64,000 nucleotides of DNA from a virus, in the IMG/VR virus record IMGVR_UViG_3300040751_002535; one strand, given 5' to 3'. The notes beneath the pieces were generated by a model. The model was not told the DNA's origin. It was given only the letters and a program-made list of their open reading frames with translations, and ran no database searches. Positions 10,711 through 29,603 of the stretch are shown piece after piece (positions within the stretch are counted from its first letter, which is position 1; every line of letters begins with the position of its first letter). Both the position numbers and the translations under genes were made by a program.

Positions 10711-10768
10711 CTCTTTTTATGATTGTATTATATACGTAGTGAATTATTTTATTAACATTACTATAGGT

Positions 10769-10776
10769 GATAAATA
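10769..10776 (+). promoter_or_regulatory. T4-like late promoter (GATAAATA)
   Basis: The same motif precedes several late genes. Confidence 0.55.
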
Positions 10777-10799
10777 GTTATAATAAAGCGAGGACAACA

Positions 10800-11375
10800 A
10801 TGCCTAATATATTAGACACTCTTGATGTGATAGAAAATCTTAGTTCGATCTATGAAAACGATCGTGCGTTTGCAGTACTTAAAGACTTTGAAAGAGTCAT
10901 TGATGAGTTAGGGTTGTATGTGTATGACAACTGGGAAGAAGGCGAACTAGCAGCTGGCCCAGAAATAGATCGTCACTGGGTCAAATGTAGTTTTATGTGG
11001 CCAAGAAAACGTATGCCTGACCCACAAGGTGGTAAGCGTTTGCTTGATTATGATTGTAAAATACAATATGAAAAATCAAGTATCATTAAACCACGTCAAA
11101 TAAAAAAACCAGGAGATATTCGTCCTGGAACTAAAAAAGGTAAACTTGATAAAGTTCCAGTATGGTTAGTGCATATAACTATGCCTAAAAAACTAATCAT
11201 TAGTATTTTTGGTGGAGATGTTGAAACTATCGATCTACCAGATACTGAAAGTAAAAATGCAGCAGGTGCACCAGCACCAGCAGGTGGAGCAATGCCAGCA
11301 CCAATAGCAGCACCAGCACCAGTAGGTGGAGCAGCACCAGCCGCTGTCGCTGCGCCAGCACCAGGAGCAGTATAA
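10800..11375 (+). CDS. Conserved hypothetical protein with Ala/Pro-rich tail
   Basis: ATG after a GAGG RBS; low-complexity APAP tail. Confidence 0.7.
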   Translation: MPNILDTLDVIENLSSIYENDRAFAVLKDFERVIDELGLYVYDNWEEGELAAGPEIDRHWVKCSFMWPRKRMPDPQGGKRLLDYDCKIQYEKSSIIKPRQIKKPGDIRPGTKKGKLDKVPVWLVHITMPKKLIISIFGGDVETIDLPDTESKNAAGAPAPAGGAMPAPIAAPAPVGGAAPAAVAAPAPGAV

Positions 11376-12094
11376 TGGGATTAAGAGCCAACGATTTACA
11401 CGACTTAGTAAAACCAGTTTTTGAAGTAGATAGTTTTCAAAGTAAAATGGGAACAGATGAGGATATTGTAGTAGTAAGTTTTAGTGTATTAGATGAACAA
11501 GCTGCAAAAGATCTTGTAGATTTTATTGAAAAAGGTTATGGATTTGTATTAGATGCAGATGCAACACCTGGCGAAATTGAAAATAATGTTTATAAAGTAT
11601 TTGTAGAAATGGAAAGAAATGCCAAAGTTCCTGCAAATATTTCAAACTTGTTAGACGGAGTTGGAAAATTAGCAGAAATCGAAAACTTTAGATTTCGCTA
11701 TCATAAAAGTTTTACAAGTTACGAAGCAAATGTAACAAATCTATCAGAAATGATACCAGCGGATCAATTTATCTACAACGATACTATTGTACAAGAAAAT
11801 AATATGAATCACTTTAAAGACTTTTTTAGCAAGAGCTTTATGGAAAATATTGAAATATTTGGAGATGATTTAATTCTTAAAAGACCGTTTGGCGATGCTA
11901 TTGGACTTACTATAAAAGATTTTAACACTACTCATTATATAAATAAAAATTTAACTGAAAAAATAAACATGAATGATTATGCAGAAATATTATTTTTAAC
12001 TAAATATCTTGGTGATTACAATGTTACTAAATTTGGTAAAAATACACTAACGTTTGAAAACGAAGGACACACACTTGTCGTTGAAAGACTTTAA
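11375..12094 (+). CDS. Conserved hypothetical (probably late) protein
   Basis: 239-aa ORF coupled to the upstream gene. Confidence 0.7.
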   Translation: MGLRANDLHDLVKPVFEVDSFQSKMGTDEDIVVVSFSVLDEQAAKDLVDFIEKGYGFVLDADATPGEIENNVYKVFVEMERNAKVPANISNLLDGVGKLAEIENFRFRYHKSFTSYEANVTNLSEMIPADQFIYNDTIVQENNMNHFKDFFSKSFMENIEIFGDDLILKRPFGDAIGLTIKDFNTTHYINKNLTEKINMNDYAEILFLTKYLGDYNVTKFGKNTLTFENEGHTLVVERL

Positions 12095-12245
12095 TAAGAA
12101 TCACTGCAACAACTGCGGACGTCCATCACATTGTGGCGTTCCATACTATCAAGACTTACAAGACTATAATCAGCCGCCAGTTACAACTAAAATATGTGAC
12201 CATTGTAGATGCGGACGCTGTACTAATATAGAGGATAACAAATAA
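12081..12245 (+). CDS. Small Cys-rich, zinc-finger-like protein
   Basis: CNNCGRPSHC...CDHCRCGRC. Confidence 0.55.
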   Translation: MKDFNKNHCNNCGRPSHCGVPYYQDLQDYNQPPVTTKICDHCRCGRCTNIEDNK

Positions 12246-13108
12246 TGGCTAAAGAAGATTTCGACTTTGATTTTGAGCCTTGGATGGCTGAAGAACTAAT
12301 CCACAGAAGCGACTGGGAAGAATGGTATGAAGCTATGCTTGAAATACTTCCACTATGGGATGTAAACACAATACCAAGAGTTGCAGGATTTATTGCACAA
12401 TGCGGACACGAATCAGGCGGTTTTAGGGTACTAAGTGAAAACTTAAACTATAGTGCTAAGGCACTCAACACAATCTTTCCAAAATATTTTAAACGTGCAG
12501 GAAGAGATGCAAATGAATATCATAGACAACCTGAAAAAATTGCGAACGTTATTTACGCAAACAGAATGGACAACGGCGATACCGACAGTGGTGATGGCTG
12601 GAGATTTAGGGGCGGCGGCATTCTGCAACTTACCGGCAGATACAACTATACCGAGTTCGCCGAAGACGTAGAAATGACACCAGAAGAAGCAGTAGATTAT
12701 GTGCGTACTAAAAAAGGTGCGTTGGATAGTGCTTGCTGGTTCTGGGATGAAAACAACATCAACAAACACTGCGATGCTATGGACATACTAAAAATGACCA
12801 AACGTATCAACGGCGGCACTATTGGACTGGAAGATCGTAAAAAGCATTGGGCACACGCATTAGATGTGCTAGGTGGCGATATGGAAATTGAACCGGAAGA
12901 AGAAAAAGAGTTAAACACAAATCAAACAATACGTCAAGGTTCACGTGGTCCATTAGTACAAGAAGTACAAGAAATACTGGGCATTGCACCAGCTGATGGC
13001 ATCTTTGGACCAGGCACTGCTAGACTTGTCAAAGAATGGCAAGCAGCAAACGGCTTAGTTGCAGATGGTATTGTAGGACCAAACACGCTGGGAAAGTTAT
13101 TAGGGTAG
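12245..13108 (+). CDS. Endolysin: GH19 lysozyme/chitinase fold plus C-terminal peptidoglycan-binding domain
   Basis: FIAQCGHESGGF, ENLNYS, GDGWRFRGGG, TKRINGG; C-terminal DGIFGPGT...ADGIVGPNT. Confidence 0.92.
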   Translation: MAKEDFDFDFEPWMAEELIHRSDWEEWYEAMLEILPLWDVNTIPRVAGFIAQCGHESGGFRVLSENLNYSAKALNTIFPKYFKRAGRDANEYHRQPEKIANVIYANRMDNGDTDSGDGWRFRGGGILQLTGRYNYTEFAEDVEMTPEEAVDYVRTKKGALDSACWFWDENNINKHCDAMDILKMTKRINGGTIGLEDRKKHWAHALDVLGGDMEIEPEEEKELNTNQTIRQGSRGPLVQEVQEILGIAPADGIFGPGTARLVKEWQAANGLVADGIVGPNTLGKLLG

Positions 13109-14715: not shown

Positions 14716-15522
14716 ATGGACTATTATAATATACTAGGTGTTAATAAACAAGCAAGTCAGGATGAAATCAAAAAAGCATACCGCAAGTCTGCTATGGCTA
14801 ATCATCCTGACCGCAATGGCGGTGATGATACACAGTTTAAACGCATTAATGAAGCATACGAAACATTAAAAGATCCTAGCAAAAGACAACAATACGATAA
14901 TCCTCGGCCACAAGCAGACATTAATATGAATTCACAAAATATGAATGACATATTTGGTCAGTTCTTTAGACAAGCACAAAGGCCACGTAAAAATCAAGAC
15001 GTTACAATAAATGTAAGAATTACCTTAAATGATGTAATGACAGGTAAAGATATTGTTGGAAGATACAGACTTGGCACAGGCAGAGAAGAGATTGCAACTA
15101 TACGATTGCCACCAGGTATTGAAAGCGGAATAATAATGCGTTATCAAGGACTAGGTGATGATTCAATTCGTCAACTTCCAAGAGGCGATTTAAACGTACA
15201 AATAATCGTAGAAAATCATCCAGATTTTATAAGAGATAGGTCGCATATTCGAACAAAGTGTAGTATAAATGTATTACAACTAATATTAGGTACAAATGTT
15301 ATAATAACCGATTTGGCAGGAAAAGATGTAAATGTAAAAATACCAGCTGGCACAAATCCTGGAACCATAATGAGTATTGCAGGACATGGGTTACCTGATA
15401 TAAATGGCCGTAGAAACGGTAATATGTATTTAGAAATAAAAGGAACTACTCCCAAAATAGAAGATTGGGAAACACTAGACACAATAAGGAAAATAAATGA
15501 TGGAACTAGTACTGGCACCTGA
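14716..15522 (+). CDS. dnaJ: DnaJ/CbpA-type chaperone
   Basis: DYYNILGV...HPD J-domain plus C-terminal domain; no Zn finger. Confidence 0.92.
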   Translation: MDYYNILGVNKQASQDEIKKAYRKSAMANHPDRNGGDDTQFKRINEAYETLKDPSKRQQYDNPRPQADINMNSQNMNDIFGQFFRQAQRPRKNQDVTINVRITLNDVMTGKDIVGRYRLGTGREEIATIRLPPGIESGIIMRYQGLGDDSIRQLPRGDLNVQIIVENHPDFIRDRSHIRTKCSINVLQLILGTNVIITDLAGKDVNVKIPAGTNPGTIMSIAGHGLPDINGRRNGNMYLEIKGTTPKIEDWETLDTIRKINDGTSTGT

Positions 15523-16021
15523 TGGTAGACTAGAAACAAAACTTGAAAGATTTGATTTTGAACTGATGCATCCTGCGCCTGTTGCAGTAGATATGATTGA
15601 ACTAATGAACAAACACAGCGGATTGGGATTAAGTGCAAACCAAGTTGGGTTTCCTATGCAGATCTTTGTAATGAAGGCATTACTAAACAAAAAACACGGA
15701 GATCCTGTTGTTGTAATGAATCCTATTATCAAAGGACTGAGTGAAGAAATCGAAGCAGGTGTTGAAGGATGTTTAAGTCATCCAGATTTAATATTAAAAG
15801 TAAGACGGCCAGTTAGTGTAATGGTCGAATTTGATACCTTGACATCTGACCTAAAGGATGTTATACATATAGAAGCAAAGTACGACGATATCGATGCACG
15901 AATATTTCTACACGAATATGATCATTTGTATGGTATTCAGTTTATTGATAGAGTCAGCAAACTAAAACTAGACATGGCAGAAAAAAAGCGTCTAAAAAAA
16001 GGAAAAAAAGTTAATGGTTGA
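15497..16021 (+). CDS. def: Peptide deformylase
   Basis: GLGLSANQVG, EGCLS, HEYDHLYG. Confidence 0.95.
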   Translation: MMELVLAPDGRLETKLERFDFELMHPAPVAVDMIELMNKHSGLGLSANQVGFPMQIFVMKALLNKKHGDPVVVMNPIIKGLSEEIEAGVEGCLSHPDLILKVRRPVSVMVEFDTLTSDLKDVIHIEAKYDDIDARIFLHEYDHLYGIQFIDRVSKLKLDMAEKKRLKKGKKVNG

Positions 16022-18257
16022 ACCATCAAAAGAGTTACAGGCAGTGTTTGATAAAGCAGTTAACGATGCTAAGAAACTTCAGCACGAATATATTACATTA
16101 GAACATTTACTATTTGCTATGCTCTGCGAAGAAACATTCGGAACCTTGATATCAGGTTATGGTGCAGACGCTGATCATATGCGTAAAGAACTAGAAAACT
16201 ATTTAAAAACACATCTAAATGATATTAAGATTGAAGAAAAGAAATATAAACCAAAGAAAACTACCACAGTAGAACGTGTTTTAAATCGTGCATTTACACA
16301 AGTACTTTTCCAAGGCAGAAACGATATTACTATTGCTGATGTGTTTATCAGTATCTTGACTGAAAAGAAAAGTTGGGCATACTTTATTACACAAAAAGTT
16401 GGCATTGACAAAGAAAAGTTTCAGAACTATATTAGTGCAGAAACAGAAATATATGATAACCAAGACGAAAACGAAAACAAAGGCATTGCTAACAAAGCAC
16501 TACGAGATTTTACTACAGATCTAAATCAACAAGTTAGTATGAATAAGATTGATCCAGTGATTGGTAGAGATGAAGAAATCGAACAAGTTGCTCTTGCATT
16601 AGGACGCCGTACAAAATCAAATGTTCTTATTGTTGGTGATCCAGGTGTTGGTAAAACTGCTATTGCAGAAGGTCTTGCTTATCAGATTGTTAACGGAAAT
16701 GTACCAGAGTTTCTAAAAGAATACCGAGTGTTTAGTTTAGACATTGGCGCTATGCTTGCTGGATCAAAATATCGCGGCGACTTTGAAGAACGTTTTAAAA
16801 TGGTACTTGCAGGGTTAAAAGGCAAAGGCAAAACTATTATGTTTATTGACGAAGCACACATGATTAGTGGTGCGGGCGCAGGCGGCAGTGGTGGATCGAA
16901 TGATTTGGCTAATATGTTAAAACCTGCACTTGCAAAAGGAAACATCAATGTTGTTGCTTCAACTACTTGGGAAGAATATCGCAAGTTCTTTGAAAAGGAT
17001 CGGGCTCTTATGCGCCGATTCCAGAGAGTAAGTGTTGACGAACCGGATAGAGAAACTACACTAAAAATCCTTGAAGGTATTAAAATATACTACGAAGAGT
17101 TTCATAGTGTTGATATTCAACAGGAGGCACTTGAAGCAGCAGTTGATTTAAGTATGAAATATCAAAACGATAAAAAACTTCCTGACAAAGCTATTGATTT
17201 GATTGACGTAGCATGTGCAAGATTTAAAGTACGTGATATTACTGAAGACAAAGTTGTAACCAAAGATAGTGTTCAGTTTGAACTTGCAAAAATGATTAAA
17301 CTTCCTGAAGAACAAATAAAAGAGCGTGAAAGTGAAAATCTTGCACACTTGGAAGATAACTTGAAAAAGGTAGTGTACGGACAAGACAAAGCAATCGACG
17401 ATATTGTTGACAAAATACTTGTAAGTCAAGCAGGACTTAAAAGTGACAACAAACCAGTAGGATCTTTTGTGTTTATGGGTCCAACAGGTGTAGGTAAAAC
17501 TGAACTTGCCAAACAACTTAGCAACCAACTCGGTGTAAAACTTGTACGTTTTGATATGAGTGAATATCAAGAAAAACATAGTATTAGTAAACTAATCGGA
17601 TCACCTCCAGGATATGTTGGATACGAAGACAATGCCGGCGGTTTATTGATTGATAAGATTCAAGAGAATCCTAACTGTGTGTTGCTATTGGACGAGATTG
17701 AAAAAGCACATCCAGATGTAAGTAGCGTACTACTACAGATTATGGACAATGGCAAGATTACAGGATCTAATGGTAAAGAAGCAGATGCACGTAACTGTAC
17801 ACTGATTCTTACTACCAACTTGGGTGCGCAAGAGGCAGAAAAGAATACTATTGGATTTAGTGACAGTATGGAAAAAGATTATGACGATGTCGATCTTAAA
17901 AAGTTCTTTACTCCAGAGTTTAGAAATAGACTAGATGGTGTTATTACGTTTGGCAAACTCAGCAAAGAAGTCATGCTGAAGATTGTTGGCAAGTTTCTTG
18001 TTGAACTTAAAACACAAGTACAGAAAAAAGATATTGCTATTAACATCACAGATGATGCTCTTGATTATCTTGTAGACAAAGGATTTGATCCTAAGATGGG
18101 TGCTCGTCCGTTACAACGTGTTATTGACAACGAAATCAAACGTCCACTTAGTCGTCAAATGTTGTTTGGTGATCTAAAAGCTGGTGGCAGTGTTACTATT
18201 GATTATCGAGAGAAAGAAATCAAACTCGATTGTGAAATAGAATATGAGACTGTATGA
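16014..18257 (+). CDS. clpA: ClpA-type AAA+ unfoldase
   Basis: Clp N-domain, two Walker A motifs (GDPGVGKT, GPTGVGKT), IGF ClpP-docking loop, no long M-domain. Confidence 0.92.
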   Translation: MVEPSKELQAVFDKAVNDAKKLQHEYITLEHLLFAMLCEETFGTLISGYGADADHMRKELENYLKTHLNDIKIEEKKYKPKKTTTVERVLNRAFTQVLFQGRNDITIADVFISILTEKKSWAYFITQKVGIDKEKFQNYISAETEIYDNQDENENKGIANKALRDFTTDLNQQVSMNKIDPVIGRDEEIEQVALALGRRTKSNVLIVGDPGVGKTAIAEGLAYQIVNGNVPEFLKEYRVFSLDIGAMLAGSKYRGDFEERFKMVLAGLKGKGKTIMFIDEAHMISGAGAGGSGGSNDLANMLKPALAKGNINVVASTTWEEYRKFFEKDRALMRRFQRVSVDEPDRETTLKILEGIKIYYEEFHSVDIQQEALEAAVDLSMKYQNDKKLPDKAIDLIDVACARFKVRDITEDKVVTKDSVQFELAKMIKLPEEQIKERESENLAHLEDNLKKVVYGQDKAIDDIVDKILVSQAGLKSDNKPVGSFVFMGPTGVGKTELAKQLSNQLGVKLVRFDMSEYQEKHSISKLIGSPPGYVGYEDNAGGLLIDKIQENPNCVLLLDEIEKAHPDVSSVLLQIMDNGKITGSNGKEADARNCTLILTTNLGAQEAEKNTIGFSDSMEKDYDDVDLKKFFTPEFRNRLDGVITFGKLSKEVMLKIVGKFLVELKTQVQKKDIAINITDDALDYLVDKGFDPKMGARPLQRVIDNEIKRPLSRQMLFGDLKAGGSVTIDYREKEIKLDCEIEYETV

Positions 18258-19322: not shown

Positions 19323-21674
19323 ATGAAACATTTTATTAGTATAGTAATAGACAACGATGGAATAAACGAAAGCAGAGATTTTGTTTTAGACACTGTCTTA
19401 AATACAGCTAACATTGGATTATTAGAAAATACAATGGAATATGAAATATACGAAAGTGAAAATAACACACAAGTATTGAGTATTCCTATCGCACGTGAAC
19501 TAAACGAAAAACAACAAGCATACCTTGCAAAAAAACTTGCCAACAAACTATTTGACAAAGGTTATAATAACTTTGATATTGAATTCAGCATTAATGAAGC
19601 AGCACTCAATGAAGCAGCACCAACTACATTTACTCCAACACACTACGGTGGACCAGGTGGCCTTAACAATGTTATGCTGCACACAGATGGCAATCTTTAT
19701 TTTAATGGCCCTGAAGGCATTACAAGATGGAATGGTAATCCAAGCGGCGAAGGTATTCTTGGTAGATGGAACCCTGCAACTATTAAAGGTACAATAGTTA
19801 ATGGACAAAGAGTTCCGTATCCAGCAGGAACAAACTTTAATAATGCACCAAGAGCAGCGGCACCAGCAGCAGCAGCGCCAGCATCAAGAGTTTCAAATAC
19901 TACACCAACTGGCGGCTTGTTGCGTAGAGGAAATAGAGGCGAAGAAGTCAAACAACTACAACGTGATTTAGGAATGACTGGCGACGAGATCGACGGTATA
20001 TTTGGTCCAGCAACAGAACGTGCTGTGAGAACATTCCAACAAAACAGCGGTGCAAAAGTTGACGGTCTTGTAGGTCCAGAAACTCGAGCAATGATACAAA
20101 AGTATCAAGCACCAGAAGATAATAGTGCTCCTGCACAAACTCCACCTGCGGCAACGGATGATGCAGCAGCAGTAGAACCAGAAGCAGATGCAGTAGAACC
20201 AGAAGCAGATGCAGTAGAACCAATAGACGGTGGCATTGCTCCAGGAACTACAGCAGGTGGGCCAAGCCAACTTCGACAGCGCCAAGTACCAGGTAGTGCA
20301 ACAGATGATGGTGGCTTAGGTCAAAGGCCAGCTCCGGGTGCAAGTCAAGCAGATGAAGTGCCAGATACAGCAGCAGATGAAGTGCCAGATACAGCAGCAG
20401 ATGAGATTGTTGTAACAACAGATAATCAAGCTAACAGTATTTTTCTAAATCCAGATTCAACTGAGGCTGAAAGACAAGCAGCAAGAAGATATTATGGTGC
20501 AACAGATGAGCCAGTAAGACAATATTCCGATATTGGTACAGCAATGATTAGCAGAGCAGAAGTACAACCAGGTGACCAAGTTGTAATCGATGGCGAAGAA
20601 GCAACTGTTGTTACCAACGATAACGAAGAAAAATATTATGTTGATCCAAATGGTCAACCCATTGGTGAATTGCCACAGCCAGATGTTCAAACAACAGTAA
20701 CCAGCCCTGGTGGCGATACATCCGGTGGTGATTCGGGTGTTAATAATAATGCAACAACTGATCCAGAAGTAAATCAAACACCACCAAGTGCATTAGCACA
20801 GCCTGATGCAGACGACGATACACCAAGTATAACTGATGAGCCTGCTAATAGAGATGCCGCAGAAGTTTTACGTCAACAGGAACAATGGCGAGAAAAGTAT
20901 GGCGATAGAACTACAGGCAGAGACGGGTTGCCAAATCAATATGTACAAGTTGTAGATGCAGCCCTAGATGAAATAAGTACAGAAACTGCTCAAAAACTAG
21001 CAGATGAATCTGTTGGTGCTCCGCCTGCGATTGCAAGGACAGTTCTTAGAAATCTTAATACAACGTTTGGCAACAGTGATAATGATTCTAATGTAGTTGA
21101 CGATTTGCTGCAAATGGCACAAGAAGTTGAACAAGAAGATCAAGATCAAGCCGCAGCATTGACTACATTATCTGATCTTGCAAAAACACTAGATAGAATA
21201 GCAAATCCTGATCAAAACAACGAAAGTGTTGAACCAATGCCCAAAGGTGCATTTATGGTTGAGGATCGTGCTATATGGCGTTCGCTGTATGAAAGCACAC
21301 ACTACACAAACGGCAAGCCTCGTCCACGTACCTTTATTACAGAAAGCAAAATGCAAGAAGTTACATTTGATGACGATGACAAGTTCTTTGAAAACTACGG
21401 GGTGATGTGGTTCAATGAAGATGAAATGATCGACGAAGCAGAGTACCAAGGACGTACTGTCAAGCTAGGCAAGCCCATGGCGGGCGATGTTAAGAAGTTT
21501 AAGGTATATGTAAAGAATCCCAAAGGCAATGTAGTCAAAGTTAACTTTGGACAAAAAGGCGCAAGAATTAAAAAAGGTAATCCAGAACGTAGACGCAGTT
21601 TCCGTGCAAGACACAACTGTGATAATCCTGGACCAAGGCATAAAGCAAGATATTGGAGTTGTAGAAAATGGTAA
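19323..21674 (+). CDS. Large modular putative internal virion protein with PG-binding domain and DUF6321-like C-terminus
   Basis: LRRGNRGEEVKQLQ...DGIFGPATERAV; acidic repeats; VYVKNPKGNVVKVNFG...SFRARHNC...RYWSCRKW. Confidence 0.7.
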   Translation: MKHFISIVIDNDGINESRDFVLDTVLNTANIGLLENTMEYEIYESENNTQVLSIPIARELNEKQQAYLAKKLANKLFDKGYNNFDIEFSINEAALNEAAPTTFTPTHYGGPGGLNNVMLHTDGNLYFNGPEGITRWNGNPSGEGILGRWNPATIKGTIVNGQRVPYPAGTNFNNAPRAAAPAAAAPASRVSNTTPTGGLLRRGNRGEEVKQLQRDLGMTGDEIDGIFGPATERAVRTFQQNSGAKVDGLVGPETRAMIQKYQAPEDNSAPAQTPPAATDDAAAVEPEADAVEPEADAVEPIDGGIAPGTTAGGPSQLRQRQVPGSATDDGGLGQRPAPGASQADEVPDTAADEVPDTAADEIVVTTDNQANSIFLNPDSTEAERQAARRYYGATDEPVRQYSDIGTAMISRAEVQPGDQVVIDGEEATVVTNDNEEKYYVDPNGQPIGELPQPDVQTTVTSPGGDTSGGDSGVNNNATTDPEVNQTPPSALAQPDADDDTPSITDEPANRDAAEVLRQQEQWREKYGDRTTGRDGLPNQYVQVVDAALDEISTETAQKLADESVGAPPAIARTVLRNLNTTFGNSDNDSNVVDDLLQMAQEVEQEDQDQAAALTTLSDLAKTLDRIANPDQNNESVEPMPKGAFMVEDRAIWRSLYESTHYTNGKPRPRTFITESKMQEVTFDDDDKFFENYGVMWFNEDEMIDEAEYQGRTVKLGKPMAGDVKKFKVYVKNPKGNVVKVNFGQKGARIKKGNPERRRSFRARHNCDNPGPRHKARYWSCRKW
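20169..20222 (+). repeat. 21-nt in-frame tandem repeat (AVEPEAD x2.5)
   Basis: gcagtagaaccagaagcagat repeated. Confidence 0.9.
20349..20404 (+). repeat. 24-nt in-frame tandem repeat (ADEVPDTA x2.3)
   Basis: gcagatgaagtgccagatacagca repeated. Confidence 0.9.
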
Positions 21675-21806: not shown

Positions 21807-22199
21807 ATGAAAATAAACGAATTTCACGATATGGATATACCAGATGAGATTGTTCCAAAGCCTGACTATGATGTAGCCGCAGACTTACTAATCTTTATGC
21901 GTAACGATCCTATGTTTTATAGAAAAACATTTTTCCCAGCGGTAGAAACATACAAAGAAAATGACAAGGATACTTCGCCTATTGAAAATATGATCAAGGG
22001 CGGATTAGGACAGTATTGTCAAAAGTTTAATATTCTCAACCCAACAGACGAACTAATGGGCGAAGGTGATATACAAGAACTTGCATTAAAAATAATACAA
22101 GATGAAATGGAAGACATTTCTGAAGGTAGAAGTCCTCATAAAAAAGGTACTAAAAAGTACAAGAAGCACATGGCAGCTATCCACGCTAACGGAGGCTAA
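21807..22199 (+). CDS. Putative internal head protein
   Basis: MKINEF leader. Confidence 0.6.
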   Translation: MKINEFHDMDIPDEIVPKPDYDVAADLLIFMRNDPMFYRKTFFPAVETYKENDKDTSPIENMIKGGLGQYCQKFNILNPTDELMGEGDIQELALKIIQDEMEDISEGRSPHKKGTKKYKKHMAAIHANGG

Positions 22200-22200
22200 C

Positions 22201-22407
22201 ATGGATATCAAAGACTTACAGCACCTAGCAGGCATACGCAACAAGTTTACAGGGTTCACTCCGTATGTTCCAGAAAACATGAGTATCACTGGCACTGAAA
22301 AGTCTAAGATTCAACGTAAAAAGAAAATACAACCTGGCACTGAAGAATGGTTTAAACTATGGTTTAGTCAGCCACACCTAACAGGAGAGAAGCCAGTTGA
22401 GGATTGA
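22201..22407 (+). CDS. Hypothetical protein
   Basis: GGAGG RBS; MDIKDLQHLAGI...IQPGTEEWFKLWF. Confidence 0.65.
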   Translation: MDIKDLQHLAGIRNKFTGFTPYVPENMSITGTEKSKIQRKKKIQPGTEEWFKLWFSQPHLTGEKPVED

Positions 22408-22933
22408 ACATTTAGACGAAGGTGTCGGACGCATTATACAAGGTGTAAACACTACGCCCGATGTCGGAGTGAATCAAACACGTATTGAAGCAGCAAAGTT
22501 CGGAAACAAAGTAGACAAAGATGGACGTCCTCCTACCTTAAGTAGTGCTGTTAAAGGCAGTAGCACAAATGTTTTATTTAACTTAGGACTTACTGAAGGT
22601 ATAAAACTACGTTTAGAACGTGACAAAGACATAGATGTATTGCATATTATGGACACCAATGACAAGCAACGTATTGAAGTGCGTGGTAAAAAAGGTTACG
22701 AAACCGGCGGCTATGATTCAAAGGATAAACTACACCAAGTATTAGACCGTGTGGGCAAAGCTGCTAATATAAGTGAACTTATGAACGGTGAAGTAGTAAG
22801 TATCAATCCTAACCATCCACAAGGCACTAGAGCAATACGCACAGCACGAGATGTGTTACAAACCGAGCAAAAAAAATACACAGCGTATGAATGGGCTCTT
22901 ATCGAAGGAGGACATAGTTTAGATGAGATTTAG
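22397..22933 (+). CDS. Putative internal head protein
   Basis: MRIEHLDEG leader; internal LTEG and LQTE sites. Confidence 0.55.
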   Translation: MRIEHLDEGVGRIIQGVNTTPDVGVNQTRIEAAKFGNKVDKDGRPPTLSSAVKGSSTNVLFNLGLTEGIKLRLERDKDIDVLHIMDTNDKQRIEVRGKKGYETGGYDSKDKLHQVLDRVGKAANISELMNGEVVSINPNHPQGTRAIRTARDVLQTEQKKYTAYEWALIEGGHSLDEI

Positions 22934-23132
22934 AGAAATCATAGAAAACTTTGCTGATGGTAAGAAAAAAGGCAAAAGCAGACCAGGGCGTGTAAAAAAG
23001 TCAGGTGCTAGTTGCAATGGCAGTGTAACAGACTTACGCAAACGTGCTAAGAAAGCCAGTGGCGAAAAGGCTAAGATGTATCATTGGTGTGCTAATATGA
23101 AAAGCGGTCGTAAGAAAAAGAAGAAGAAATAA
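22923..23132 (+). CDS. Small basic putative internal head protein
   Basis: MRFREIIENFADGKK; very Lys-rich. Confidence 0.65.
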   Translation: MRFREIIENFADGKKKGKSRPGRVKKSGASCNGSVTDLRKRAKKASGEKAKMYHWCANMKSGRKKKKKK

Positions 23133-23902
23133 TGAAGATTAGAGAAGTCACCGAAGAAGTTGTACCTATCAACAATACCGAACATGCTGTAGAACGGTTG
23201 AAAGTTGCTGCTGAACTTTGTAGTAAAATGGGCAATCAGCCTATTCTTTACAGAGCAATGCACGGAAGCACATATCATGGTGGTGCTAAAAACAATCTAA
23301 TACAAAAAATAACCAATCCTGCAAGAAAAGGTGTAATGGGAAATCATAATACTATACAAGTAGCAGTTCTTAAAGGCTTAGGCATCGCTAGTCCAGCACA
23401 AGCAACTACAGTGGCACCTGCAAGCAACAGCAACTATTTTGGTACAAATCATATAATAATTCCAGGTGGCGACTTTACTGCTCATTGGAACCCAGACATC
23501 GACGACTTGGGTGGCTTCAAAGGATATGATCCACAATATGCTCAAGGTGCTGGCCCAAGCGGCGGAACTATTAGCCGCAGAGACGAGCCAGAAGGTGAAG
23601 AATTACAAAAAATACTAGGTGGTTATCAAAAAGGTATTCCTAGTTATAGCCAACACAAAGGCGAAGTTATATTAGATACAGAGTTTTATTATATGCTAAA
23701 CTTAGAATCGTTTTTGAGTAAGTTCGGCGGCAAGAAAGTTAAAGAATTAATCACAATAGATAATAGGAAAAGTTTTGCTCCTATCAAACAAGATCTATTG
23801 GTAGATAAGTTTAAAACATATCGCGACATTGGATGGTATCTAGCAAACCCTGCTACAAATATGATGAAGTGGATTGCTGATAAGGAAGCAACGAGAGCAT
23901 AA
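23132..23902 (+). CDS. Putative internal head protein with ADP-ribosyltransferase-like fold
   Basis: MKIREVTEE leader; LYRAM...FG...IIP.G.F...WNPDIDDL...GEVIL. Confidence 0.45.
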   Translation: MKIREVTEEVVPINNTEHAVERLKVAAELCSKMGNQPILYRAMHGSTYHGGAKNNLIQKITNPARKGVMGNHNTIQVAVLKGLGIASPAQATTVAPASNSNYFGTNHIIIPGGDFTAHWNPDIDDLGGFKGYDPQYAQGAGPSGGTISRRDEPEGEELQKILGGYQKGIPSYSQHKGEVILDTEFYYMLNLESFLSKFGGKKVKELITIDNRKSFAPIKQDLLVDKFKTYRDIGWYLANPATNMMKWIADKEATRA

Positions 23903-24015
23903 TGACAAAAGAAGAACTAGCACACTACATAACTAAATATAAAGAACACGAAGCACGTAGAGCTAGTACTAATGAACGTAATGCATATTGGAGGAAATAC
24001 AATGAAAATAAGTGA
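23902..24015 (+). CDS. Small hypothetical protein (not in ORF track)
   Basis: 37 aa MTKEELAHYITKYKEHEARRASTNERNAYWRKYNENK, coupled to the upstream stop. Confidence 0.5.
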   Translation: MTKEELAHYITKYKEHEARRASTNERNAYWRKYNENK

Positions 24016-24292
24016 ACTACTAGAAGAAAAAGTTGAAATGTGTCCAGATGCATGTTGCGGTAAACCTGTTACAGAATGTAAATGTGGACCTGATTGCGAG
24101 CATTGTGACTGTCACGAAAAGAACAAAATGAATGAAACTACTAGTGCAGGAAGCGTAGCAGCAGTAGCAGCACCAATCGGTGGTATGCAATCTCGTCAAC
24201 CTAAAAACCCAGATGGTACTGCTAAAAATGCATTAGACAGTGATACATTAATGGCTGGAAAGAAAAAGAAGACTAAGAGTAAAAAGGCATAA
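24002..24292 (+). CDS. Putative internal head protein with Cys-rich segment
   Basis: GGAGG RBS, MKISELLEE leader, CPDACCGKPVTECKCGPDCEHCDCH. Confidence 0.65.
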   Translation: MKISELLEEKVEMCPDACCGKPVTECKCGPDCEHCDCHEKNKMNETTSAGSVAAVAAPIGGMQSRQPKNPDGTAKNALDSDTLMAGKKKKTKSKKA

Positions 24293-24295
24293 ATA
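24290..24295 (+). promoter_or_regulatory. Late promoter TAAATA
   Basis: Overlaps a stop codon; upstream of the ORF at 24324. Confidence 0.5.
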
Positions 24296-24323
24296 CACTA
24301 TAATACGTATTGGAGCCAAATCA

Positions 24324-24686
24324 ATGACTAAAAAAACAAATGAAGGTCTTGCAGACTTAGCTGATGTAGCAGAGCGCGACCACGAAGTACAAATGGCACG
24401 AAGCGATTTGTACAAACTTGCAAAATATTCTATCAAACTACACGAGATGCTAAAAAATGTAAGTGAAGCAGAAGGTATAGAAGGATGGCAGCAAGCTAAG
24501 ATTACCAAAGCAGCAGATTATATTTCAAGTGTATATCACGCATTGGATTATGATACAAAGTTTGAAAGTGTAAATGTAGCAGAAGATGCAAAGCCAAAAA
24601 CAATAAAACGTACATTATCTGATTCTCAAGTTAAATCTTACAAAGGCAGTTTATCTGAAAAACTTTCAACTATAACAGGGAGATAA
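24324..24686 (+). CDS. Putative internal head protein
   Basis: DHEVQMARSDL...WQQAKITKAADYI module. Confidence 0.65.
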   Translation: MTKKTNEGLADLADVAERDHEVQMARSDLYKLAKYSIKLHEMLKNVSEAEGIEGWQQAKITKAADYISSVYHALDYDTKFESVNVAEDAKPKTIKRTLSDSQVKSYKGSLSEKLSTITGR

Positions 24687-24688
24687 TC

Positions 24689-24895
24689 ATGAGAATACGT
24701 GAGCTATTTGAATCAGCAACTCTATGCAACGAATGCGGAAATCCTAGTTGGAAAACACTTGAGTCAGATGATCTCGATGAAGGTAAAAAGAAAAAGAAAT
24801 CAACCAAGAAAAAAGGCAGCCACGGTAAAGTGTGCTGGAAGGGCTATCGTAGAGGCAAAGGCGATAGTTGTCATAAAGTAAAAGGGGACGGTTAA
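24689..24895 (+). CDS. Small basic putative internal head protein
   Basis: MRIRELFES leader; CWKGY motif. Confidence 0.6.
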   Translation: MRIRELFESATLCNECGNPSWKTLESDDLDEGKKKKKSTKKKGSHGKVCWKGYRRGKGDSCHKVKGDG

Positions 24896-25536
24896 TGGAC
24901 TTTAATGCACTACAACACAAACTATTTGCAATGGATCCAGTTGATCCTAGAGAAGATATAGCAAGAATGAAAGCACAAGCTGCCGCTCCAGCAGTTGAAA
25001 GTGATGGGATTGATTATCTTAAAGAAAGTGCCGTAGTGCCAGAAGGTTCATTACAAATGGATCGTGATTATAGTGTTAATGATTTTGCTGCACTAGCAGG
25101 TGTTACTATAACTGAATCACAAAGAACTGGCAGTGCTGGACAAGCAAAAGCCAATGCACCGATGCCGCCGGCAAAACCAGGGCGTACTACACATCCATTA
25201 AAAGATAAACTAGTAGGTGAATGCGCTGATGATACAATTCGCATAGAAAAACTTGAAGATAAAATTAAATCACTAGAAGCTATTGTTATAAAACTAGCTG
25301 CAAAAGCAGGATTAGTTGAACGTGAACTTAGTAACGACGAAGAAAAAGAAAAAGAACGTATTGTTACAGGTATGAAGAAAAACAAAAGCGATTTTAAAGA
25401 TCGTTATGGCAACGATGCAGAAGCAGTTATGTATGCTACTGCTACAAAACGTGCAAAACAAAATGCAAGCGTAGATTATTCAAGTGATATTAAAACAAGA
25501 TTGTATGATGCATTAAATAAGAAAATGGGTGTATAA
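24895..25536 (+). CDS. Putative internal head protein
   Basis: YLKES and ITES sites; FKDRYG..AEAVMYATATKRA module. Confidence 0.6.
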   Translation: MDFNALQHKLFAMDPVDPREDIARMKAQAAAPAVESDGIDYLKESAVVPEGSLQMDRDYSVNDFAALAGVTITESQRTGSAGQAKANAPMPPAKPGRTTHPLKDKLVGECADDTIRIEKLEDKIKSLEAIVIKLAAKAGLVERELSNDEEKEKERIVTGMKKNKSDFKDRYGNDAEAVMYATATKRAKQNASVDYSSDIKTRLYDALNKKMGV

Positions 25537-28199
25537 TGAAACTAAACGAGTTCATCGTTGAAAATGTTTTAAAACAATTTAGGACAGCAGCAGGTCCAGG
25601 ACTTTCAATGAATAATCCTGGTAATCCAGATGGCAGTCATGTTGTAGAAATCAAACGAGCTTTAAGGAAGCATACTCTTGTAACAGGAAAAACACAAAAT
25701 GGCAGTTTTCAAACTGCTGGGCCTGCATGGTCAGGTGATGAGTCAGGAACCTGGGATCAAACATTAGACGATGCTATTAAAACTTGGAAAAATAGTATCA
25801 ACATACAAGTTAATAATCCAAACGAACTAAACACTGCTTTAGGAGAACTACGAGAAAAAGATATTCGCTATCTTATTAGTACTAGTCTTTTTCCAGCTGG
25901 AAGCGGATCTATGGCAGGATTGCTACAAATAGGCAATGATGGCACAACTCCTGGAAATCAAAATACTGCTGCTACCTGGGAAGGACAAGAAGTTGATATA
26001 AATCATGTTATTGATACCCCAGTTGAACAAGTGACTGATACAGCACAAATGATTGCTGCTATTGGCTTTAGTGGCTGGTATTTTATTCTACAAGAACTAC
26101 TCAACAAACGTGAAGAAAACACACAAGGAATACAACAAAGTCAAAACGCAAGACTAGCTGAACTCAATAGAATGATGGTAACCATCTATGAAAGACAGAA
26201 TCAGGTTGGATCTATTTGGCTAGAAGAAGTATGGGAAAGAGGAGTTGTCCTTAAAATAAGTGACGGACTGACTGCTACTCTTGCAAATGGCGAGGAAATG
26301 GAGTTTTTGCCTCCAAACTGGCGCAATGGGTCAATGCGTGAAGAAGCACAACAACTTTACGAATATTTTAGACAACTTGCAACAGGATTAATAGCCAAGT
26401 TTAAACAACAAGACTCCGAAGCTGATGCAGCAAGAAATGCTCCAGATGTAGTTGATACACCTACATTAGATGCAACTACTACAACAGCATGGGTTACTGC
26501 AATGAATCAGGCATTTGAAAATAGTATTAGTGCAGGTATTATACCAGGGGGTAGAGGATTCGGATATGATCGTGAAAAGATCAGCGATCTAATGAATCAA
26601 CTAAACACAGCAGGAGATTGGGACCAAGTTGAGGAAGCATACGATGCACAGTTTGAAGATCTATCAACACAGCTAGTTGATGAACTTAGCGAAGCTGATT
26701 ATCAATCCCTAGTTATAAGACGACTTACTGCATTAAGAAGAATAAATCCAAAACTGTTGTATGCATCTATTGTTTGGGGACAAGACACTGATAGCATGGA
26801 TGTTAGTATCGATGAGGACACCTATACTGTTGTTAAACAGTTAGATAGTAATGGATTTCCTGTGGTCAACAAAGGCAGACGTGAAGTTAACGATGTATTA
26901 GTTATTGATGATGCATTGAAGGCAGCGATTGAACTATCTGGTGGAACTGTTCCTGATCTAAACATTGAAGCTAATGAAGAACACCGTGCAATGGGCGGCG
27001 CTATTATTGTAACAGTAATAAACGATCGTGTTCCAGAAATGACAGCGTTTTATACAATGCAAGATCCGTTCAGTGAATCACAGTTTAAATCACTAGGTCC
27101 GAGACGTTTGCTAGGTATAAGTGAAGGAGCTGCGGTGCTTGTAGCAAATGGTTCAAGTGAAGAATCTGTTGCACAATGGATACACGGACAAGTTATGGAC
27201 GATAGACTTTGGCTTATTGGAGATGAATCTCAAGATATCGAAGGTGCTGCTAATGTTCATTTTGATAGTAGGTATAGAGACGAAAGTGAACAATCAGACG
27301 GATTCGGAAGCGATGATGATGATGTCGAAAATACAGAACTCGAAACTGATCTTATAAACAGATTATTCAGTCCTGATGCACGAAATGCTGCATTGGCAGA
27401 ACTTGGACAAATATCTCCAGACACAGAACTACAAAGAGTATATGACAGAGTTTATCGCGGATATCAAAGTACACACGGCAACTGGCTAGACGAAGATATT
27501 ACACAAGTAAGCGAATTAGAAAACTATGTAGAAGGTGATCAAAACAATATTCCAGATGGCTTTAAATCTATCATGGGTAAAATAGGCATTCCATATGCTG
27601 CACCAACATTGATGGCCCAAATATTTAAAGAAAGTATGGAACCTGGATGGTTTGGTTGGGGAACTGATGAAAATCTATTAGGTGCGTTGATTGCACAAAT
27701 AAGAAATAGAGAAGATTACTTACAAGTAAATGAAAGATACAAAGCAAAATACGGTAGCGACTTAATCGACGATGTCGATGCAGAGGATAGTAGTTGGAAA
27801 CTCAACAATGATGGTGAATTTGTTGAAGCACTTAAACTTGCTATTGGAGAAGATGTTGATATTACACGAGAAGGTATAAGCACGCCTGCTATGAGAGCAT
27901 TTTCTACAATGCGTAACGAACCCGCAGAAAATAATATTGCAGCCTTTAGAGCAAAGATTAGTAAATCTAACTTTGATAGTGTTGGCGCAGTAATGTATAT
28001 ACTAGATGAAATCAATAATATTGTATTAGCAACTCCAGGTGCATCGACGGAACAACAAGAAGAGTTTTTACAAATCATTGCAGATTTTGAAGAAACATTT
28101 GAAGGTGAAAGAGCCGAGCGTACAGGATATAGTGCGCCAAAGTTTGAAGATATAATTGCTGACTGGAAACTAAACAACAGCGATCAATGGTTTCAATAA
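25536..28199 (+). CDS. Large putative ejected protein with annexin-like repeats
   Basis: MKLNEFIVEN leader; GWGTDE...Y..KYGSDLIDDVDAE and GFGYDRE...YDAQFEDLSTQLVDE. Confidence 0.6.
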   Translation: MKLNEFIVENVLKQFRTAAGPGLSMNNPGNPDGSHVVEIKRALRKHTLVTGKTQNGSFQTAGPAWSGDESGTWDQTLDDAIKTWKNSINIQVNNPNELNTALGELREKDIRYLISTSLFPAGSGSMAGLLQIGNDGTTPGNQNTAATWEGQEVDINHVIDTPVEQVTDTAQMIAAIGFSGWYFILQELLNKREENTQGIQQSQNARLAELNRMMVTIYERQNQVGSIWLEEVWERGVVLKISDGLTATLANGEEMEFLPPNWRNGSMREEAQQLYEYFRQLATGLIAKFKQQDSEADAARNAPDVVDTPTLDATTTTAWVTAMNQAFENSISAGIIPGGRGFGYDREKISDLMNQLNTAGDWDQVEEAYDAQFEDLSTQLVDELSEADYQSLVIRRLTALRRINPKLLYASIVWGQDTDSMDVSIDEDTYTVVKQLDSNGFPVVNKGRREVNDVLVIDDALKAAIELSGGTVPDLNIEANEEHRAMGGAIIVTVINDRVPEMTAFYTMQDPFSESQFKSLGPRRLLGISEGAAVLVANGSSEESVAQWIHGQVMDDRLWLIGDESQDIEGAANVHFDSRYRDESEQSDGFGSDDDDVENTELETDLINRLFSPDARNAALAELGQISPDTELQRVYDRVYRGYQSTHGNWLDEDITQVSELENYVEGDQNNIPDGFKSIMGKIGIPYAAPTLMAQIFKESMEPGWFGWGTDENLLGALIAQIRNREDYLQVNERYKAKYGSDLIDDVDAEDSSWKLNNDGEFVEALKLAIGEDVDITREGISTPAMRAFSTMRNEPAENNIAAFRAKISKSNFDSVGAVMYILDEINNIVLATPGASTEQQEEFLQIIADFEETFEGERAERTGYSAPKFEDIIADWKLNNSDQWFQ

Positions 28200-28876
28200 T
28201 AGTGGACGAGTACGATTTAGACGAGCACGAACTTTATCTAAAATATCCACAACATCACAAATGGTGGAATAAACTTTATCTAGCAGAAACTATGGGCTAT
28301 AGTTGTGGTCCAGGGGGTGTAAGAATACCCAGCACAGGCGAATATGTAATACGTCCTATATACAATCTTATAGGCATGGGTGTGTGTACAACTATAAAAG
28401 TATTAAAACAAGGTGATTGTACCAGCACACCTCCGGGTTACTTTTGGTGCGAATACTTAGAAGGCAATCATTACAGTGCTACATACGAAAATATCAACGG
28501 TACATGGAAACCTTTACACTGCTGGCAAGGATGGAACCGGAAATCAAATGTTGTAAAGTTTAATAAATGGATACGCAGTGATTATACACCAACCATTCCC
28601 AAAGCTATTGCTAATATAAATAATGTAAAGTATATCAACATTGAATACAAAGGCGACAATCCTATTGAGTTGCATTTTCGTCCTAGTGGCAATCCAGATG
28701 GTACATCGATTAGTAAGTGGAATGAATATATTCCTATATGGCATGATACTACACAGTTTGAAAAAGACAAACTAGTTGACCAAGGATACACTTGGATAGA
28801 TAATCCGTATGATAACTGGATGGAAGACATGGAGCCGTATTTGAACGAAAGGCGGCTCGGGTACTATGTACGGTAG
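28187..28876 (+). CDS. ATP-grasp-like protein
   Basis: NKLYLA...YVIRPIYNLIGMG...FWCEYLEG.HYS...NIEY...IELHFR. Confidence 0.5.
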   Translation: MVSIIVDEYDLDEHELYLKYPQHHKWWNKLYLAETMGYSCGPGGVRIPSTGEYVIRPIYNLIGMGVCTTIKVLKQGDCTSTPPGYFWCEYLEGNHYSATYENINGTWKPLHCWQGWNRKSNVVKFNKWIRSDYTPTIPKAIANINNVKYINIEYKGDNPIELHFRPSGNPDGTSISKWNEYIPIWHDTTQFEKDKLVDQGYTWIDNPYDNWMEDMEPYLNERRLGYYVR

Positions 28877-29303
28877 AATTGATTTATCCAAAGTAAAATA
28901 CAAACTAGATCCTGACATTTTTTTGCACAAACCTAGTTGGAAAGAAGCAGCACACGTATACAATCTCTATTGTAAATACAAAAACTTTGATAGTGTGTTT
29001 CCATTGTATAGTGATGATATTTTACAGAATGATTTTCATTGTTTGTATATAGACAATAAACTTGTAGCATGGGAACAAACAAGAACATATACAAATGACA
29101 AAGTTGCATTTAGTGATCAGTTTGCATGGGATTACAGCAATCCAGAAGATAGAGTTGGTTGGAGATTTAGCTACCACGTTCCAGCTTATTACAAGTCACA
29201 AGGTTATAAGTATCTATACTTAGGAGATCACCACGACTATAAAAGTCGTATTCAAGGATACGAAATATTAGGTCCAATAAAAACACTTGACAACAAAACA
29301 TAA
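28866..29303 (+). CDS. Aminoacyl-tRNA-protein transferase-like (ATE/Bpt C-terminal GNAT) protein
   Basis: QFAWDYSNP..RVG...GYKYLYLG....YKSRIQGYEIL resembles the ATE_C YLYLG...YK motif. Confidence 0.55.
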   Translation: MYGRIDLSKVKYKLDPDIFLHKPSWKEAAHVYNLYCKYKNFDSVFPLYSDDILQNDFHCLYIDNKLVAWEQTRTYTNDKVAFSDQFAWDYSNPEDRVGWRFSYHVPAYYKSQGYKYLYLGDHHDYKSRIQGYEILGPIKTLDNKT

Positions 29304-29315
29304 CTACTGTATATT
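29287..29315 (+). promoter_or_regulatory. Sigma70-like promoter
   Basis: TTGACA-17 nt-TATATT. Confidence 0.65.
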
Positions 29316-29339
29316 AAACTTAATAAAAAGGAGTATTGC

Positions 29340-29603
29340 ATGAGCGATAGAGTATATGGACAAGAAGAAAAAGCCAAGCTAGAACGTCTAGTTAAAGAAG
29401 GCGTAACAGTACTACAAGAAATCGAAGATTTGCAAGGCGGATTAAAAGAAACTGTAAAAGCAGTAGCAGAAGAACTAAATGTTAAACCAAGTCTTATTAA
29501 CAAAGCCATCAAAGTTGCACAAAAACGTGACTGGAGTCGAGTTGCAGACGAATATGAAGATCTTGAAACTATTGTTGCTACAGTAGGATACGATACGGAG
29601 TGA
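29340..29603 (+). CDS. Small DNA-binding protein (T4 DsbA/GapR-like)
   Basis: KLERLVKEG...IEDLQ..LKETVKAVAEEL.VKPSLINKAIK. Confidence 0.55.
   Translation: MSDRVYGQEEKAKLERLVKEGVTVLQEIEDLQGGLKETVKAVAEELNVKPSLINKAIKVAQKRDWSRVADEYEDLETIVATVGYDTE

Follow-up and report, generated by a model that had tools for sequence, protein, structure and literature searches.

Does a bacteriophage encode annexin repeats, and what might a protein that carries them do during infection? The question is raised by a single gene, at positions 25536-28199 on the plus strand of a 64,000-nt stretch of viral DNA (IMG/VR virus record IMGVR_UViG_3300040751_002535; hereafter the window, to the whole of which all positions refer). 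A preliminary description of this DNA had placed annexin-like repeats in the encoded protein and had labeled the protein ejection-type. Here, we report that this protein contains three annexin-fold repeats, which follow a short N-terminal segment resembling the capsid targeting sequence (CTS) of phage T4 and a domain with a PG_binding_1 fold. Annexins are treated as essentially eukaryotic proteins with a few bacterial outliers; the family described here shows that annexin repeats circulate in phages, in which they come fused to a putative packaging leader and a putative cell-wall-binding domain.

Annexin repeats in a phage-encoded protein

The open reading frame (ORF), which has exactly the coordinates given in the preliminary description, encodes 887 amino acids (aa; 98.7 kDa, pI 4.3, net charge -77, no Cys). 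When 1.84 billion representatives were searched exhaustively with HMMER, ~35 full-length clusters (50% identity) made up its family, every one of them from uncultured giant phages; below the family, the same search returned true multi-repeat annexins that matched only aa ~700-753. The full-length protein was modeled with AlphaFold2 from an alignment of 38 family sequences (mean predicted local distance difference test score [pLDDT] 79.6; predicted template modeling score [pTM] 0.35). We number the repeats from the N terminus; their coordinates are listed in Table 1.

An annexin repeat consists of ~70 residues folded into five alpha-helices, A to E (PMC10882027, PMC3894181). Sequence and structure both identify such repeats in the phage protein. 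First, in an hmmscan search, which the preliminary description had proposed as a check, repeat 3 matches the Pfam Annexin family (PF00191) over aa 707-752 with 25.9 bits against a gathering cut-off of 25 (E 1.1e-5), and 11 of the 38 family members match this family at E below 0.01. Second, in a phmmer search against PDB sequences, the best match of repeat 3 was annexin A4 (E 1.9e-8), to each of whose four repeats it aligns; annexins were returned as 56 chains at E up to 1 and as 22 chains at E below 0.001. A profile of the 38 family members searched against PDB sequences still found annexins (E 9e-6). Third, the model of aa 687-770 superposes on annexin A13a (6b3i) with a root-mean-square deviation (rmsd) of 2.3 Å over 76 residues (Z 8.8), and the best 50 rows of a Foldseek search of the full-length model against the PDB are all annexins (top E ~1e-4). 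The annexin repeat that had been claimed near 27610-27800 is thus borne out.

The second, degenerate repeat that had been suspected near 26490-26720 corresponds to repeat 1, and here too the claim held. Repeats 1 and 3 are similar to each other in a BLAST self-comparison (E 3e-7) and in an hhalign comparison of the two family sub-alignments (probability 97.7%, E 1.7e-12). In the divergent family member P0042, it is repeat 1 (aa 321-374) that scores above the Pfam Annexin cut-off, with 25.7 bits. Moreover, aa 310-397 superpose on domain 1 of annexin I (1bo9) with an rmsd of 1.7 Å over 72 of 73 residues at 22% identity (Z 9.2), and this match ranked first of 48,161 representatives when the full-length model was used in a fold search independent of Foldseek. 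Structure prediction, likewise suggested beforehand, therefore yields the five-helix annexin fold, with repeats 1 and 3 at 1.7-2.3 Å from annexins of known structure.

The possible third repeat near 27430-27500 lies inside repeat 2 and stood only in part: the fold is that of an annexin repeat, whereas sequence similarity to the other repeats was rejected (hhalign probability 4%) and a short loop takes the place of the GxGT loop, which is absent. We retain repeat 2 as a fold match. All three places singled out beforehand are thus annexin-fold repeats, on the basis of sequence and structure matches for repeats 1 and 3 and of structure for repeat 2. The hhalign probability for aa 454-561, which form five helices in the model, as a further degenerate repeat was 0.3%, and hhalign detected no similarity of repeat 3 to the C-terminal, N-terminal or middle domains. 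In eukaryotic annexins, four or eight contiguous repeats make up a compact core, a convex disc that binds membranes. Of the three repeats detected in the phage protein, repeats 2 and 3 are adjacent, as in an annexin half-core, and repeat 1 lies ~200 residues upstream. Superposed on two adjacent repeats, aa 600-771 match annexin A5 (6k25) with an rmsd of 5.0 Å over 134 residues and the two-repeat half of annexin 24 (1dk5) with an rmsd of 4.5 Å over 137 residues (Z 9.1); alpha-14 giardin is also among the structural matches of this segment.

Could the same picture arise by chance from an ordinary helical protein with a string similar to GxGTD? The Pfam score of repeat 3 is 0.9 bits above the cut-off, and helical bundles easily reach middling structural Z-scores. 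However, chance does not account for the agreement of independent results: the match to all four repeats of annexin A4 (E 2e-8), the family profile (E 9e-6), the internal duplication (E 1.7e-12), the Pfam matches to a different repeat in other members, the superpositions at 1.7-2.3 Å and the 50 best Foldseek rows. We regard chance resemblance as effectively excluded and annexin homology of the repeats as very nearly certain.

A conserved calcium-site signature in repeat 3

The annexin signature consists of GxGTD in the A/B loop, which forms the type-II Ca2+ site, together with a Glu in the D/E turn (PMC3894181, PMC10882027), and the Trp of GWGTD has been proposed to contact the membrane (PMC3894181). 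In repeat 3, the loop reads G707-W-G709-T710-D711-E712 and is followed ~39 residues downstream by the capping residue E750, which the phmmer alignment places on the Glu of the KSEL(S/T)G segment of annexins A4 and A5. These positions are conserved in a family whose mean column identity is only 31% (38 sequences): G709 in 32, T710 in 31, D711 in 27 and E750 in 34 of the 38 members. Hydrophobic or aromatic residues also persist at the tip of the loop. In repeat 1, GxGT is unconserved, and D345 (33/38), E383 (31/38) and Y389 (38/38) are kept. The protein thus has one canonical, one degenerate and one absent Ca2+ site in repeats 3, 1 and 2, respectively. Altogether, the Ca2+-site signature of repeat 3 is intact and conserved, and as judged from these residues the repeat is predicted to bind Ca2+.

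An N-terminal domain with a PG_binding_1 fold

The N terminus had been described as resembling a peptidoglycan-binding domain. This likeness is upheld by fold and not by sequence. When aa 1-160 were folded alone from an alignment of 11 sequences from related loci (pLDDT 73.7, pTM 0.72), the resulting domain superposed on the N-terminal domain of SleB (6tci) with an rmsd of 1.8 Å over 73 of 73 residues (Z 8.8). In an exhaustive comparison with the 48,161 representatives, the top 14 ranks were all peptidoglycan-binding domains, after which Z fell to ~3-4.5; the matches include SleC, CtpB and L,D-transpeptidases as well as the AP3 endolysin (Z 8.0) and phiKZ gp144 (Z 7.4). The match was found again with the full-length model.

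By contrast, Pfam PG_binding_1 (PF01471) does not match the window protein, and the best scores in the family, 16.7 bits in P0043 and 13.7 bits in P0047, both at the N terminus, stay below the cut-off of 23 (best E 0.008). Neither Foldseek nor a profile search against PDB sequences matched the domain, and its hhalign probability against the two PG_binding_1 domains encoded elsewhere in the window was ~1%. Its pattern V..IK..L...G.W...LD.AI..WK resembles the Pfam consensus, from which it differs by scoring below the sequence threshold and by carrying a beta-hairpin insertion (aa 47-63). We conclude that the domain, as modeled, has a PG_binding_1 fold, and we predict that it binds peptidoglycan.

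A capsid-targeting-like leader shared with neighboring genes

The protein starts with MKLNEFIVEN. The CTS of T4, whose propeptides of this type span ~10-19 residues, reads MKTYQEFIAE (PMC8442874); its first ten residues suffice for loading into the prohead core, and the protease gp21 cuts after the Glu (PMC9026906). By analogy, cleavage is predicted before Asn10 (MKLNEFIVE|N). Almost all of the 38 members, down to 22% overall identity, have the motif M-[KR]-[LVI]-x-[EDQ]-[LIVF]-[LI]-x-E, with a few exceptions in which the Glu is shifted one residue earlier or later. The leader is the best-kept segment of the protein, with a mean pairwise identity of 51% compared to 18-36% for the domains.

Leaders of this kind are clustered. 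Among the 87 plus-strand ORFs of the window, the pattern occurs in six, all of which fall within eight consecutive ORFs (22397-28199; permutation P 5e-6). Besides that of the annexin-repeat protein, the leaders of the array are MRIEHLDEG, MRFREIIEN, MKIREVTEE, MKISELLEE (from an internal Met at 24002) and MRIRELFES; MKINEFHDMD in the same region is a near-miss. In the related viral loci that we compared (23 loci, found with a 15-sequence alignment), the leaders are retained and the mature parts have been exchanged. Two of these loci (L022:2835-3731 and L023:9105-10001) have, immediately before the annexin-repeat gene, an inserted gene for a 298-aa protein that combines the leader MKFQEIDINE with a canonical PG_binding_1 domain (Pfam E 6e-13), and L023:5898-6923 encodes the leader MKISDLSEG... 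in front of an NT5C 5'-nucleotidase domain. The internal-protein loci of T-even phages similarly encode diverse injected defense proteins that have only the CTS in common (PMC3012670). Judging from these sequence patterns, the array 21807-25536 is probably hyperplastic and encodes packaged proteins. Ahead of the array lies the gene (19323-21674) for a 783-aa protein that contains a PG_binding_1 domain, and motifs like TAAATA, possible late-type promoters, precede 23972 and 24324.

A processing protease is known from the nearest cultured relative as judged by DNA polymerase (46% identity), Agrobacterium phage Atu_ph07, which encodes a gp21-type protease (Peptidase_S77, PF03420; 77.5 bits) and whose virion contains 131 proteins identified by mass spectrometry (PMC6102473). 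In the slot between ClpA and DNA polymerase, Atu_ph07 has neither CTS-like leaders nor a homologue of the annexin-repeat protein. The label ejection-type, which had been given without justification, is supported by the conserved T4-like leader, the cluster of leader genes and the gp21-type protease of Atu_ph07. By analogy with the T4 leader, we consider packaging of the protein into the capsid likely.

The leader also bears on an explanation in which the protein would not be part of the virion. It would be made late and stay inside the cell, where it would bind the cytoplasmic face of the inner membrane, e.g., at prohead assembly sites, or act at lysis, at which point it would encounter peptidoglycan, and its N-terminal motif would mark translation or expression rather than serve as a targeting peptide. 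The location of the gene among replication and chaperone genes would suit such a protein, as would the frequency of MK- starts in AT-rich phage genes and the failure to find the protease on related contigs, which are 8-15% complete. However, Glu9 and the hydrophobic positions 6-7 of the leader are conserved across proteins that are 22-25% identical, in the segment that is the most conserved of all; leader genes cluster tightly (P 5e-6); and leaders persist on unrelated mature domains (NT5C, PG_binding_1). Codon or expression effects would hardly account for conservation, clustering and persistence, and we consider this explanation quite unlikely.

A model for action at genome entry

We favor a model, to which we give an even chance, in which the protein is packaged in the capsid, ejected and, at genome entry, binds peptidoglycan and, via Ca2+, anionic membrane lipid. 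Taken separately, an action in the envelope or through Ca2+ and lipid has a somewhat less than even chance. The steps from packaging, cleavage and ejection to the compartment of action and the binding of Ca2+ and lipid are predictions from the features described above. In this model, the nine-residue leader would target the protein to the prohead core, a gp21-type protease would remove the leader after Glu9, and the mature protein would exit together with the DNA. Once in the cell envelope, it would hold peptidoglycan by its N-terminal PG_binding_1-fold domain, while repeat 3 (GWGTDE...E750), aided by the flanking annexin-fold repeats, would bind anionic phospholipid (phosphatidylglycerol, cardiolipin) via bridging Ca2+, with the loop aromatics W705, F706 and W708 dipping into the membrane interface. 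By tying peptidoglycan to the surface of the host membrane, the protein may anchor, stabilize or seal the entry site.

The architecture of the protein fits this order of events. The PG_binding_1 fold lies directly behind the leader, and the array member L022:2835-3731 has the same layout. Sequence analysis found no hydrophobic stretch that fits a transmembrane helix or a signal peptide, and without a secretion signal, a protein reaches peptidoglycan in one of two ways, when the cell has lysed or when a virion ejects it. Ejection would therefore be the simplest route to peptidoglycan, and of the two routes the leader favors it.

The rate at which the gene evolves can be read in two ways. In related loci, the annexin-repeat protein is 43% identical where the DNA polymerase is 94% identical (L011), 26% where it is 85% (L024) and 25% where it is 82% (L022); the small gene at 29340-29603 is 93-95% identical in the same three loci. 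This fast divergence relative to flanking genes may be a signature of host interaction. It would suit an arms race and, with it, an alternative in which the protein is packaged and injected but acts in the cytoplasm in host takeover or anti-defense, like T4 IPI or Alt, and in which its folds are protein-binding or scaffold modules. The T-even internal proteins, diverse injected defense proteins with a common CTS only (PMC3012670), set a precedent for such a function; two of the three repeats lack a complete Ca2+ loop; and the PG_binding_1 fold makes protein-protein contacts in the pro-domains of matrix metalloproteinases, which are present among the structural matches. Yet the Ca2+-site residues of repeat 3 have been selectively kept at 31% mean column identity, the loop tip still carries hydrophobic or aromatic residues, and in a sister protein of the array, the leader is followed by a bona fide PG_binding_1 domain. 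Free Ca2+ in the bacterial cytoplasm is sub-micromolar, and an intact Ca2+ site therefore suits the envelope better. We consider an action in the cytoplasm unlikely.

The annexin repeats could also serve to remodel membranes after injection, by aggregating or bending inner-membrane lipid around the genome to form an early compartment as in phiKZ-like jumbo phages. A preprint describes how jumbo phages protect injected DNA in a lipid-based compartment (bioRxiv 10.1101/2024.03.24.586471), and annexins organize the lipids of membranes and take part in membrane transport and repair (PMC10882027). A packaging-type leader and annexin repeats in a jumbo-phage protein would suit such a role. However, the phage is related to the Rak2/Atu_ph07 group, which is not phiKZ-like and has no known compartment, our analysis identified no other compartment components, and the PG_binding_1-fold domain points to the periplasm rather than to an intracellular vesicle. 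We consider remodeling of this kind very unlikely.

Several observations weigh against the model of envelope binding at genome entry. With respect to the repeats, the Pfam Annexin score is barely above threshold, the full Ca2+ motif is present in only one repeat of three, and the repeats detected do not make up a contiguous four-repeat annexin core; they are split by ~200 residues, and at a pTM of 0.35 their mutual arrangement in the model is unreliable. With respect to packaging, the protein is large and very acidic, in contrast to the small, basic internal proteins of T4, although Alt, also internal in T4, is likewise packaged through propeptides (PMC9026906); the gene has replication and chaperone genes for neighbors rather than a head module; and a gp21-type protease (PF03420) was not found in five related contigs (29-52 kb, 8-15% complete). 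The exact T4 late promoter, TATAAATA, has four sites in the window compared to 6.5 expected, none of which is upstream of the annexin-repeat gene. The gene is preceded only by TAAATA (25514-25519), 22 nt before the ATG and inside the end of the upstream gene, which is weak evidence, as this hexamer has 34 plus-strand copies in the window and is too common to count. Finally, peptidoglycan and lipids are conserved targets, which do not obviously explain fast evolution.

Relation to known proteins and significance

The protein shares with bacterial multi-domain annexins (Kodavali et al. 2014, PMC3894181) the joining of repeats to unrelated domains, the GWGTDE loop with its acidic cap and the lack of Cys, and bacterial annexins also depart from the four-repeat tetrad (PMC3894181). 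It differs from annexins in having three detected repeats, apparently no contiguous tetrad and one complete Ca2+ site, in carrying a capsid-targeting-like leader and a predicted peptidoglycan-binding domain in front of the repeats, in evolving fast and in being virus-encoded. The 2014 annexin survey found none in viruses (PMC3894181), and full-text literature searches yielded no publication that describes an annexin of a phage or other virus.

With T4 IPI, IPII, IPIII and Alt, the protein shares a leader of ~10 residues ending in [L/I]-x-E and a setting of clustered, hyperplastic genes that have only the leader in common. It differs from them in size and charge (98 kDa and pI 4.3 compared to basic internal proteins of 8-20 kDa), in a mature part that has no sequence or fold similarity to theirs and in domains that point to the envelope rather than to the cytoplasm; its own packaging and cleavage are predicted. 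With the T7 gp14/gp15/gp16 ejectosome and virion lysins of the phiKZ gp144/gp181 type, which have peptidoglycan-binding domains, it would share the principle of virion-carried envelope engagement during delivery. Unlike these envelope-penetration proteins, to which it has no homology, it has no lytic domain (transglycosylase or peptidase) detectable by Pfam or by searching the family profile against PDB sequences, and its contact with lipid would be an annexin Ca2+ bridge instead of transmembrane helices.

Database searches outside the family gave little. PHROGs contains no family for the 887-aa protein; tblastn searches of 50,697 cultured-phage records matched neither the whole protein (E 1e-5) nor repeat 3 alone (E up to 1); and the BFVD viral structure library returned nothing below E 1e-3. 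Rows named "internal virion protein" in BFVD were judged insignificant (E ≥0.035, probability ≤0.23). Public names for family members are hypothetical, except that some (P0069 and P0071; JGI/IMG, 887 aa) are called "molybdopterin converting factor small subunit", which looks like a misannotation, as no such domain was detected in the sequence.

Annexin repeats and CTS-directed internal proteins are both known principles; what is new is that the two are combined, that a virus encodes annexin repeats and that the three repeats are split. If the model is correct, the protein would represent a new way in which a virion-delivered protein engages the bacterial membrane, namely by a Ca2+ bridge to anionic lipid without transmembrane helices, and a testable function would be at hand for one of the many unannotated virion or ejection proteins of jumbo phages. 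A bolder reading, that this is the first viral annexin, an injected protein whose Ca2+-bridged repeats manipulate the bacterial membrane at genome entry by sealing the puncture or by wrapping the incoming DNA in host lipid, is possible but doubtful. On that reading, annexin-type membrane repair or remodeling would be part of phage infection, and annexin repeats in the virosphere would bear on the disputed origin of the family. The leader motif, in turn, offers a tool for predicting packaged proteins in this phage lineage.

Domain architecture and genomic context

Table 1. Features of the annexin-repeat protein and adjoining genes
Feature	Residues	Position in window	Strand	Remarks
Leader-bearing small-gene array, ended by annexin-repeat gene		21807..25536	+	T4-CTS-like leaders
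213-aa upstream gene		24895..25536	+	No leader; one-base overlap (TAATG) with annexin-repeat gene
Capsid-targeting-like leader MKLNEFIVE	1-9	25536..25562	+	Resembles T4 CTS; predicted cleavage after E9
PG_binding_1-fold domain with inserted beta-hairpin (aa 47-63)	~31-135	25626..25940	+	Fold match
Helical domain	~166-300	26031..26435	+	Fold without known match; helices 169-195, 203-217, 225-241 and 267-300 in model
Annexin repeat 1	~305-400	26448..26735	+	Homologous to repeat 3; Ca2+ loop degenerate
Conserved middle domain	~401-565	26736..27230	+	Motifs PEMTAFYT and DRxWLIGD; 35% mean pairwise identity
Acidic low-complexity linker	~566-599	27231..27332	+	Net charge -10 over 35 residues; pLDDT dip in model
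Annexin-fold repeat 2	~600-685	27333..27590	+	Fold only; without Ca2+ loop
Annexin repeat 3	~687-770	27594..27845	+	Pfam, PDB sequence and structure matches; canonical type-II Ca2+ site signature
C-terminal helical-repeat domain and stop codon	~775-887	27858..28199	+	Unspecific fold matches

Between and beyond the repeats, the protein contains parts of less obvious affinity (Table 1). The segment aa ~140-300 is unmatched in Pfam, in the profile search against PDB sequences and in fold searches. The middle domain, a small beta-sheet with five helices in the full-length model and among the better-kept parts of the family, is unmatched in Pfam, PDB sequences, the ESM Atlas (aa 400-600) and fold searches. 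The C-terminal domain has only ARM/HEAT/TPR-like matches (Z up to 8.7 over ~90-100 residues), which are unspecific, and is the least conserved domain of the family (18% mean pairwise identity).

The annexin-repeat gene occupies the same slot in related loci, directly after a homologue of the 213-aa gene, which adjoins it in every related locus that reaches that far. The 213-aa gene evolves fast (36-93% identity) and has only a weak match to a PHROG without functional annotation; its product could be a partner or chaperone of the annexin-repeat protein.

The window is phage-like, with nearly all genes on the plus strand and a GC content of ~38%, and encodes a family-B DNA polymerase, a clamp loader, thymidylate synthase, a DnaJ-deformylase-ClpA block and a GH19 endolysin. 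The nearest relatives of the DNA polymerase, at 41-49% identity, come from jumbo myoviruses of 350-490 kb: Sinorhizobium phage Phosso, Agrobacterium phage Atu_ph07, Escherichia phages of the Rak2/121Q type and Vibrio phage 2.275.O. CheckV completeness of 8-15% for related contigs of 29-52 kb implies a genome of ~350 kb. Judged from the DNA polymerase, the clamp loader and the gp21-type protease of the nearest cultured relative, the phage appears to be a T4-superfamily jumbo phage of about that size. Megablast of 20 kb of the window matched nothing among cultured-phage records, and as far as the collections searched go, the phage is uncultured.

Elsewhere in the window, DnaJ, peptide deformylase and a ClpA/B-type AAA+ protein form a conserved block (14716-18257); ClpA and DnaJ are adjacent in Atu_ph07 as well (gp292/gp293; PMC6102473). 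Two genes annotated by PHROG as "virion structural protein" (10767-11375 and 11375-12094) lie upstream of the endolysin gene (12245-13108), whose product combines a GH19-like catalytic part with a C-terminal PG_binding_1 domain. The region between the annexin-repeat gene and the DNA polymerase gene (28187-29603) is variable across relatives: in L012, L015-L018 and L024, the gene pair at 28187-29303 is replaced by radical-SAM genes, namely a homologue of window 4079-4987 and, in L024, a gene for a B12-binding radical-SAM protein.

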